Positions 30,051 to 46,659 are shown, counted from the first letter of the stretch. The stretch is 64,000 nucleotides of DNA from Candidatus Aenigmatarchaeota archaeon (GCA_038733315.1 JAVYPJ010000002.1:160001-224000), one strand, 5' to 3'. The notes: generated from the letters alone by a model not told the origin. Numbers and translations are program-made.

Positions 30051-30084
30051 AAAATATTATAATACTTTTGAACAAATCTTCTGC

Positions 30085-30170
30085 TGCGGGGGGTGGGATT
30101 TGAACCCACGAAGGCACTAAGCCACTGGGACCTCAACCCAGCGCCCTTGACCAGGCTAGGCGACCCCCGC
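30085..30170 (-). tRNA. tRNA-Leu (GAG)
   Basis: GCGGGGG acceptor, anticodon arm CTGGG-TTGAGGT-CCCAG, long variable arm, GTTCAAATC, discriminator A. Confidence 0.95.
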
Positions 30171-30214
30171 ATAATTGCATAATTTATCATAAAAAATCAA
30201 TTCTAGAAAAAAAT

Positions 30215-30258
30215 TAAAACATCTGATGGCATTTGAAAAGCTGCAATGGTAATTCTGG
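30215..30258 (-). other. 3' arm of 16S processing stem with bulge-helix-bulge
   Basis: Inverted repeat of 31727-31770; central helix TTTC (30235-30238), bulge AAA (30232-30234). Confidence 0.85.
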
Positions 30259-30260
30259 TT

Positions 30261-31733
30261 ATTAAGTGATCCAGCCGCACGTTCCCGCACGGCTACCTTG
30301 TGACGACTTCGCCCCCCTCGCGGAGCCCCTGTTCGAGCCTTTAGACCCTCACAGGAACTCCACTCGGTTGGCGTGACGGGCAGTGTGAGCAAGGGGCAGG
30401 GACGTATTCGGCGAGGTTTGCTAAACCCCGCCTACTAGGGATTTCGGCTTCACGAGGGCGAGTTACAGCCCTCGATCTGAACTAGGGGCGCTTTTAGGGG
30501 ATTTGCTTCGCCTTTCGGCGTCGCATCCCTTTGTAGCGCCCATTGTGTTGCGCGTGTAGCCCTGGGGATTCGGGGCATACGGACTTACCGTCGCCCGTAC
30601 CTTCCTCCCGCTTGTCGCGGGCAGTCCCCCATGAGTGCCCCACAGCCGAAGCTGCGGGTAGCAACATGGGGCACGGGTCTCGCTCGTTAGCCAACTTGAT
30701 GGCACGCCTCACGGTACGAGCTGACGGTAGCCATGCACCACCTCTCGGCTCGTCTGGTAAGGTCTTTAGCCTGACCTTCATGCTGCCGTCTCCCCAGGTA
30801 AGATTCCCGGTGTCGAGTCCAATTGAACCGCACAACCCACCCCTTGTGTGCCCCCCCGCCAATACCCTTAAGTTTCACCCTTTCGGGCGTACTCCCCAGG
30901 CGGCCCACTTAACGGCTTCCCTTCGCCACCGAAGTGGCTCTAAGCCACTCCGATAGCTAGCGGGCAACGTTTACAGCTGGGACTACAGGGGTATCTAATC
31001 CCTTTCGCTCCCCCAGCTTTCGCCCCTCACCGTCAGGCCCGTTCCAGCCGGCCGCCTTCGCCACTGGTAGTCCTCCCAGGATTAAAGGATTTCACCCCTA
31101 CCCTGGGAGTACTGCCGGCCTCTCCCGGCCTCAAGGCTAGCAGTATCTCCCGCAGTCCCATAGTCTACTATGGGATTTAACGGGAGACTTACTAGCCCGG
31201 CTACGGGCGCTTTAGGCCCAATAATCGCGGGGTCGACTTGGGGCGCCGGTATTACCGTGGCGGCTGCCACCGGTCTTGCCCACCCCTTATTCGCCCAGCT
31301 TTCTATCACTGGGCAAAAGCCCTGGCAAAGCCAGGGCACTCCGGGTCACCTCCTCGTGCGTTAGCACATTGGGAAGGTTTCGCGCCTGCTGCGACCCGTA
31401 GGCCCTGGGTTCATGTCTCAGAACCCATCTGGAGGCTTCCGCTTTCACGGCCCCTACCCGTCTTAGGCTTGGGGGTCCTTTACACCCCCAACAACCTGAT
31501 AGGACCACCTCCCATCCTACGGCACTAATAGCTAATAGCTATTAGCTTTCGGAGAGGGTCCTTCCAGAATCCCTCCCCTATGGGGTATTAGCCCCAGTTT
31601 CCCGGGATTATCCCCCACCGTAGGGTAGGTTGAGGTGGTATTACTCAGCAGTGCGCCGAGGGCTTACCCCTCACGACTCGCATGGCTTAGCCTGACCCGG
31701 ATAGCCGCCCCCTCTGGCGGGTTCAGCCAGAAT
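30261..31733 (-). rRNA. rrs: 16S rRNA (archaeal, divergent, not linked to 23S)
   Basis: GC-rich island with archaeal SSU landmarks: AAGCCATGCGAGTC, GATTAGATACCC, AAACTTAAAGG-like, AAGTCGT..CAAGGTAGCC, GGCTGGATCAC; ends estimated by analogy. Confidence 0.97.
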
Positions 31734-31770
31734 TACCATTGCAACTTATTTTCTGCCATCAGATGTTTTA
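31727..31770 (-). other. 5' arm of 16S processing stem with bulge-helix-bulge
   Basis: AAAACATCTGATGGCA-GAAA-ATA-AGT-TGCAATGGTAATTCTGG; complementary to 30215-30258. Confidence 0.85.
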
Positions 31771-46553: not shown

Positions 46554-46659
46554 GCCCCGGTCGTCTAGCGGCCAAGGATAGCGGCCTTTCGTTCAAGAAA
46601 GGATTGATAAAACAATGAAAGGAAAGCCGCAGACCCGGGTTCGAATCCCGGCCGGGGCA
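46554..46659 (+). tRNA. tRNA-Glu (TTC) with 33-nt intron at 37/38 (46592-46624)
   Basis: GCCCCGG/CCGGGGC-A acceptor; GCGGC-CTTTCG^intron^A-GCCGC; BHB helix CTTT/AAGG with 3-nt bulges. Confidence 0.9.

Follow-up and report, generated by a model that had tools for sequence, protein, structure and literature searches.

The window analyzed here is a 64,000-nucleotide (nt) stretch of DNA from a Candidatus Aenigmatarchaeota archaeon (GCA_038733315.1 JAVYPJ010000002.1:160001-224000; G000:C2:160001-224000 in our numbering, i.e., contig C2 of genome G000). In this window the 16S ribosomal RNA (rRNA) gene carries the tail UUAAUAA after GGAUCAC, which means that the anti-Shine-Dalgarno sequence has really been lost; the observation was confirmed. 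The single 16S rRNA very probably lost this sequence in evolution, leaving ribosomes that initiate without mRNA-rRNA pairing. In agreement, Shine-Dalgarno (SD) motifs were missing from G000 and from three further CCUCC-less genomes, yet were detected by the same procedure in two relatives that keep CCUCC.

The 16S rRNA gene lacks the anti-Shine-Dalgarno sequence

Rfam (RF01959) recognized a full-length archaeal small-subunit (SSU) rRNA at 31733..30261 of the minus strand, scoring 1416.6 bits over model positions 1-1478. In the Rfam alignment of its 3' end, the consensus GGAUCACCUCcu stood opposite GGAUCACUUAAU, with UUAAU where the model has CUCCU; the 16S rRNA ends in GGAUCAC-UUAAUAA, as against the canonical GGAUCAC-CUCCU, and helix 45 is intact. 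The minus-strand DNA at this end reads GCGGCTGGATCAC, TTAATAA and CCAGAATTACC in succession. The original prediction, made from the sequence alone, had placed a 16S tail without an anti-SD at 30255-30275, and the Rfam alignment and the minus-strand reading showed both its letters and its coordinates to be correct. In alignment A1, the five species of the genus all shared the same letters up to GGAT. The features at this end are:

30261..31733, minus strand: 16S (SSU) rRNA gene (RF01959), the sole copy in the assembly, intron-free
30266..30272, minus strand: GGAUCAC, the last conserved 16S letters, 3' of helix 45 (Rfam 3'-end alignment)
30259..30265, minus strand: UUAAUAA in place of CUCCU(..), i.e., the missing anti-SD (Rfam alignment)
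30083..30171, minus strand: tRNA-Leu(GAG) gene, immediately downstream of the 16S gene (ARAGORN; Rfam tRNA, 54.5 bits)

A second, intact 16S gene was sought: the 732,905-base assembly (seven contigs) gave a single 16S match, GATCACCTCC occurred nowhere in it (0 occurrences), and no CCTCC was present in the spacer that separates the 16S end from the tRNA-Leu(GAG) gene. The assembly is rated 94% complete, with an estimated contamination of 4.2%, and the source runs containing the stretch are hot-spring metagenomes. G+C content is 27.8% in the genome and 60% in the 16S gene. The 23S gene is unlinked to the 16S gene and lies on contig C1 (G000:C1:291268-294291).

An artefact, be it a mis-assembled tail, a gene decaying into a pseudogene or a bin from which an intact 16S copy is missing, is conceivable in a 94%-complete, seven-contig bin with 4.2% contamination, of which two small contigs (C3 and C6) are foreign. 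However, Logan contigs from two other studies bridged the tail site with identical letters and kept UUAAUAA: X2 record 13 (770 letters) spans 30144-30700 and X8 record 28 (384 letters) spans 30146-30529, neither with a listed difference within 30210-30326, their differences falling in the spacer and inside the 16S gene. In the same sample, other contigs diverged at 30266 and continued into ...AAGGAG, the canonical form, so that the canonical tails of other organisms can be seen where they occur. Moreover, all five congeners with a 16S 3' end lacked CCUCC, the gene scored as a full-length SSU rRNA with helix 45 intact, its processing stem was perfect, the tail was covered by RNA-library contigs of a close relative, and a genome-wide absence of SD motifs is impossible from an assembly error at one locus. 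We consider an artefact highly improbable.

The sequences flanking the 16S gene pair with each other in a bulge-helix-bulge stem, the motif that is cut by the archaeal splicing endonuclease. Its parts are:

30239..30258, minus strand: processing helix 1, 3' strand, pairing with the 5' leader and 16S nt 1-7 (20/20 pairs; cofold)
30232..30238, minus strand: bulge-helix-bulge, 3' half, UUUC (central 4-bp helix) and the 3-nt bulge AAA (4/4 pairs)
30216..30231, minus strand: processing helix 2, 3' strand (16/16 pairs)
31727..31746, minus strand: processing helix 1, 5' strand, including 16S nt 1-7 (31733..31727) (pairing check)
31747..31753, minus strand: bulge-helix-bulge, 5' half, GAAA (central helix) and the bulge AUA (pairing check)
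31754..31769, minus strand: processing helix 2, 5' strand (pairing check)

The stem, in the order helix 2, 3-nt bulge, 4-bp GAAA/UUUC helix, 3-nt bulge and helix 1, was paired at 40/40 positions, with an energy of -57.3 kcal/mol vs -59.4 kcal/mol for the minimum-free-energy structure. Since these canonical flanks are kept, the transcript is an ordinary functional pre-rRNA. Helix 1 begins seven letters past GGAUCAC, and those seven tail letters are unpaired in the window genome. In the congener G004 (L002), the tail UCAGC pairs with 16S nt 8-12, so that the processing helix reaches GGAUCAC itself.

One contig of RNA library X15, from a close relative, starts in the 16S end, continues through the unchanged tail and the trailer and then, at the bulge, enters the leader, with its loose end at 30246 (30 of the 93 loose letters were compared, by eye). 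This trailer-leader joint hints at a ligated, circular pre-16S intermediate, in which such a junction is expected. Another joint, 30111>30266 in X20 (one contig, with 20 letters on the short side), most likely comes from the 16S-tRNA spacer of another organism and was set aside.

Restoration of CCUCC in the RNA, by a small 3' exon spliced on or by a sequence displaced downstream, was also weighed, as the 16S genes of relatives are rich in introns, some of them inside helix 45, and a foreign-looking 16S (L004, in the G018 bin) carries CCTCC displaced 18 bases past GGATC. Yet no CCTCC lies between the 16S and tRNA-Leu genes and GATCACCTCC is nowhere in the assembly; the processing helix, seven letters past GGAUCAC, leaves no room for an exon junction; the relative's RNA contig passes from the unchanged tail straight to the flank junction; and with SD motifs absent, a restored CCUCC would have no partner. 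Such restoration is thus extremely improbable.

Two further observations concern the assembly and its tRNA genes. One string, 36 letters long or longer, stands at both the start of G000:C1 and the end of G000:C2, oppositely oriented, and these two large contigs probably join there. A 106-base tRNA at window positions 46554-46659 (plus strand; Rfam, 49.9 bits), missed by ARAGORN in default mode, is probably an intron-bearing gene; in the whole genome ARAGORN reported 49 tRNA genes with its intron search vs 38 without.

Shine-Dalgarno motifs and the initiation of translation

Genes were called as open reading frames (ORFs) of at least 100 codons from the first ATG, an ORF being dropped if more than 30% of it was overlapped by a longer one. 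SD motifs were counted as 5-mers of GGAGGTGA at -18..-3 and in two control windows:

G000, all contigs, no CCUCC: SD 5-mers at 7/641 starts (controls 4 and 7)
G000 minus C3 and C6, no CCUCC: 4/624 (controls 4 and 6)
G004, same genus, no CCUCC: 2/347 (controls 5 and 2)
G005, same genus, no CCUCC: 0/233 (controls 3 and 1)
G009, second CCUCC-less genus: 5/461 (controls 2 and 10)
G012, sister genus, with CCUCC: 51/339 (controls 4 and 6)
G039, another family, with CCUCC: 35/605 (controls 13 and 9)

The earlier remark that no GGAGG or GGTGA precedes the starts inspected thus held genome-wide, the test for SD enrichment being negative (4/624 vs 4 and 6), and the difference in 5-mers between G000 and G012 was pronounced (Fisher p = 4e-20). 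SD 6-mers preceded 0/624 starts of G000 (without C3 and C6) and 31/339 of G012; among G012 genes lying at most 20 bases from the previous gene, 35/113 had an SD 5-mer. The most enriched words before internal genes were AGGTGA, GGTGAG and GAGGTG in G012 and AT-rich words only in G000, where G was rarer at -12..-5 (0.088) than further upstream (0.148). The duplex energy of a canonical tail at -20..-1 in G000 was -1.82 vs -1.80 for shuffled windows. Furthermore, among 207 reciprocal-best pairs, 33 genes of G012 had an SD motif and only two of their G000 partners did, one of them on the foreign contig C3.

Three of the seven SD hits in G000 were also located on C3. This contig (14,385 bases) and C6 (6,551 bases), both outside the window, show 81-99% DNA identity to G012, while true orthologs between the two genera share ~49% protein identity; they are therefore mis-binned foreign pieces. 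Both carry textbook SD sites, e.g., AAGGAGG before overlapping genes. By its tail, its SD count and the occurrence of the trait throughout its lineage, G000 fits the SD-scarce class without conserved CCUCC (class iv, PMC10783764).

One alternative, raised in the original prediction, is that the SD system was replaced, with the AU-rich tail CACUUAAUAA pairing to a complementary AU-rich element upstream of the starts; a replacement of this kind has been proposed for organisms whose tails are variant. Upstream regions are indeed very AT-rich, and class iii organisms such as Sulfolobales, with CCUCA, are recorded in the available parts of a survey as binding without the CCUCC core (PMC10783764). 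But hybridization energies placed upstream pairing within or below the control range: the mean duplex of the genome's own tail was -2.14 kcal/mol at -20..-1, vs -2.84 at -80..-61, -2.42 for the shuffled window and -2.07 for the shuffled tail. No enriched k-mer complementary to the tail was found in the upstream regions of G000; in G005, 5-mers complementary to its own tail preceded 3/233 starts, vs 9 and 5 in the controls. Congeners differ in their tails (four versions) yet have the same upstream composition, and at the temperature of a hot spring five or six A-U pairs would bind very weakly. Pairing by the AU-rich tail, which we rate as very unlikely, was therefore rejected.

The frequency of a TATA-like hexamer at -32..-25 in G000 depended on the position of the gene:

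First genes: 37%
Genes spaced 21-80 bases from a neighbour: 51%
Genes spaced 0-20 bases from a neighbour: 16%
Overlapping genes: 13%
Control windows: ~12%

AT content peaked at -22..-28 before G000 starts, T stood at -1 in 68% of them, and the TATA-like peak was seen in all six genomes, with or without CCUCC. Several features named in the original prediction were recovered: TATA-like boxes ~25-30 bp upstream (the hexamer peak lies at 25-32 bases), starts that often read TTATG (TT precedes 315/624 predicted starts) and starts overlapping the previous stop (ATGA overlaps in 70/402 same-strand pairs). Archaeal signals at -25/-30 have been read as leaderless promoters, in the passages available to us (Nakagawa et al. 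2017, PMC5397173). Promoter-proximal genes of G000 are thus probably expressed as leaderless mRNAs: with T at -1 and the TATA-like signal 25-32 bases ahead of the ATG, they show the arrangement expected if transcription starts at the A of ATG. Of the 624 genes, the 235 that overlap the preceding gene or lie close behind it would probably be started by upstream ribosomes that have just terminated (stop-start coupling), acting on AU-rich, essentially unstructured RNA.

As the TATA-like peak occurs in all six genomes, leaderless first cistrons appear common to the order, with SD used mainly for internal cistrons; SD pairing, serving mainly operon-internal genes, would then have been dropped at least twice in the family. 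The SD-independent initiation proposed at the outset is therefore supported by the missing SD enrichment, by the promoter-distance signals and by the common stop-start overlaps. The genome encodes aIF1/SUI1 (69.4 bits) and a Dim2/Pno1-type KH protein.

Several points weigh against this explanation: i) the gene caller was crude and ignored short genes and GTG/TTG starts; ii) the relatives were sampled in part (G004, 400,000 bases; G005, 287,748; G009, 577,697; G012, 380,000; G039, 626,003); iii) TATA-like signals were scored with an ad hoc hexamer set; iv) the RNA-run data are assembled contigs, unable to define RNA ends or the mature 16S 3' end; v) same-strand spacing of at most 5 bases was nearly as frequent in G012 (40%) as in G000 (45%); vi) the promoter signal of close genes was low, at 16% (spacing 0..20) and 13% (overlaps) vs ~10% in controls. 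Initiation at genes within 20 bases of the previous gene is thus the weakest link of the explanation.

Other candidate correlates of SD-independent initiation were discarded. Additional internal promoters replacing SD sites were not seen (signal of 0.13-0.16 in G000 vs 0.17-0.23 in G012). Weaker RNA structure around starts was present in all five genomes and hence unspecific, the RNA being nearly unstructured throughout. Co-evolution of Dim2/Pno1 with the tail was not apparent, as the first KH domain lacks GXXG in genomes with and without CCUCC alike. The NOB1 zinc ribbon (PF08772) had no match in G000 or in any control genome, which is uninformative.

Within SD-independent initiation, a more speculative possibility is that the genus marks its starts by the five bases UUAUG, read through extended pairing with the initiator tRNA at leaderless and internal cistrons alike: in the anticodon loop CUCAUAA of this tRNA, A37 and A38 would face U-1 and U-2. 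TT at -2/-1 was found at 50-54% of predicted starts in G000, G004 and G005, vs 36% in the second genus without CCUCC, 25% in the sister genus that uses SD and 16% in a further family. Genes spaced 0-20 bases from a neighbour, whose promoter signal is low, had the bias just as strongly (53%), and only 8% of in-frame internal ATGs were preceded by TT. However, internal TTATG was not clearly avoided (observed/expected of 0.98-1.01 vs 1.10-1.18 in other genomes), so that selection against it, at most a slight effect, was dropped as an argument, and T at -1 is equally expected from a transcription initiator element. We regard the idea as doubtful.

Distribution and repeated loss

In the order, 118 species genomes were surveyed. 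The 12-mer at the end of helix 45 was found in 77, three of them by chance, which together with a variant in G001 gave 75 16S 3' ends; the 12-mer matches in G041, G068, G090, G084:C10, G092:C30 and G103:C51 were not 16S and were rejected. The canonical ...GGATCACCTCC was present in 68/75, and the remaining 7/75, without CCUCC, were all confined to two genera: that of the window (G000, G001, G002, G004 and G005, i.e., all five 3' ends seen) and a second one (G009 and G011, both members). A survey of tails in related archaea, proposed with the original prediction, thus showed the loss as a trait of whole genera.

Between GGAT(C) and the processing helix, the seven genus-level sequences had four versions of the tail (CACTTAATAA, CACTCAGCT, CCCTCTCAG and CCCTGAAAAGCT), despite 16S identities of 95-96% within the window's genus. 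Therefore the tail appears to have drifted after constraint was lost, as expected for unselected letters.

A tree of 32 proteins (9,703 columns, five taxa) had the topology ((G000,G004),(G012,(G009,G039))), with 100/100 support on both inner branches. Uniting the two CCUCC-less genera cost 83.8 log-likelihood units (approximately unbiased (AU) test, p = 0.000335, LG+G4). Since the AU test rejects a clade of CCUCC-less genera, two independent losses are likely, i.e., judging from these alignments, the anti-SD was probably lost twice in the family. Speaking against this are the small number of taxa (five), the long branches and the deviant amino-acid composition of three rows, and also that the group tested was named after the tree had been inspected and that the test result was obtained under LG+G4, with C20 the better model. 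A 16S tree was not used for the order of losses, as the genera formed a polytomy with L004 on a long branch.

Beyond the order, a scan of contigs with TGCGGCTGGATCACD gave at least 121 matches; among the matches listed, the titles were almost all of bacteria, many of them G+C-rich, and the matches were judged to be chance without inspection of the loci.

The 16S genes of relatives showed two other peculiarities. Long insertions (introns), some inside helix 45, were present in L006, L016, L007, L009, L010, L011-L015 and L017, so that intron-bearing genes span up to 2,751-2,974 bases, vs 1,468 in the window, whose genus is intron-free. The G018 bin held two 16S 3' ends, the canonical L275 (G018:C128) and the foreign-looking L004 (G018:C57). 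In L004, GGATC is followed by a small hairpin and then GGATAACCTCC, with CCTCC lying 18 bases beyond GGATC; the opening letters of this tail agree, bar one mismatch, with the tail published for Candidatus Nanopusillus acidilobi.

Known systems and significance

In the available parts of a 2024 survey, one archaeon stands in class iv, Ca. Nanopusillus acidilobi, with the tail GATCTAGTTAATTCC, a case ascribed there to leaderless mRNAs and relaxed selection; the other 38 CCUCC-lacking archaea listed are Thermoprotei with one changed letter (CCUCA/CCUCU), and Table 3 puts named Thermoprotei examples among organisms still binding (PMC10783764). Like the window organism, Ca. Nanopusillus acidilobi is a tiny hot-spring DPANN archaeon with no CCUCC at the usual place and with rare SD motifs (2% in supplement file 2, 7% in Table 4; PMC10783764). 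However, the tails differ (GATCTAGTTAATTCC vs GATCACTTAATAACC here), and its lineage is distant: L004, a 16S with that tail type, is 74% identical to the 16S of the window. In the parts of the survey at hand, the Nanopusillus case takes up one table row and one sentence (PMC10783764). The present case, unlike that report, comprises two whole genera, with hypervariable tails, a CCUCC-keeping sister genus that serves for control, and evidence that the loss happened twice. By analogy with L004, the published case may be an incomplete loss, with CCUCC displaced past the annotated end.

In Nanoarchaeum equitans the rRNA genes are unlinked, as here. It is likewise a reduced member of the DPANN archaea that hardly uses SD (supplement file 2 gives 2.5%, PMC10783764), but unlike the window organism it keeps GATCACCTCC and is placed in class ii in the survey tables available (PMC10783764). 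Sulfolobales and Acidilobus (tails GATCACCTCA..., class iii) are also archaea listed without exact CCUCC; according to the same tables they are one letter off, keep UCACCUC and have SD pairing in 14-54% of genes (PMC10783764). In the window organism, by contrast, the entire core and the pairing are gone.

The 18S rRNA of yeast ends in GGAUCAUUA. Eukaryotic 18S rRNA resembles the present case in having GGAUCA followed by a short A/U tail without CCUCC, together with a Pno1/Dim2-type KH protein; it differs in serving cap-dependent scanning, of which there is no evidence here. The resemblance of the tails is most likely convergent.

Among bacteria, the passages available name many Flavobacteriia, some Mollicutes, the insect endosymbionts Carsonella, Hodgkinia and Sulcia, SR1 and a Parcubacteria subgroup as lacking the anti-SD, as documented by Amin et al. 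2018 (PMC6107228) and Tsurumaki et al. 2022 (PMC9297842). As far as those passages go, the bacterial losses are like the present one in that SD motifs are absent too, the loss is lineage-wide and no variant SD compensates for it, in genomes that are often small and AT-rich. They differ in involving bacterial ribosomes and initiation factors. Lim 2012 is reportedly a further source for bacteria without an anti-SD. The word 'archaea' is absent from the main text of Amin 2018 as available (PMC6107228). According to the original prediction, the losses known so far come mainly from some reduced bacteria, which is in line with the accessible parts of these sources (PMC6107228, PMC9297842, PMC10783764), with one archaeal case in print. 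In literature on Aenigmarchaeota, DPANN, Nanoarchaeota and SD, no description of this lineage's loss was found among titles, abstract openings and passages.

The lineage is therefore a new archaeal case of a known type of anti-SD loss, to which it adds the probably repeated loss, the drifting tails and the SD-using sister genus. In practice, starts in these genomes will be misplaced by gene finders with a score for ribosome-binding sites, and the 16S 3' ends of lineages like these are not to be 'corrected' to CCUCC. The strong UU before AUG in the genus (50-54% of starts) is the boldest lead. Finally, the same operons with and without SD sites in sister genera form a natural comparison, which lets one ask how archaeal ribosomes start internal cistrons without rRNA pairing.

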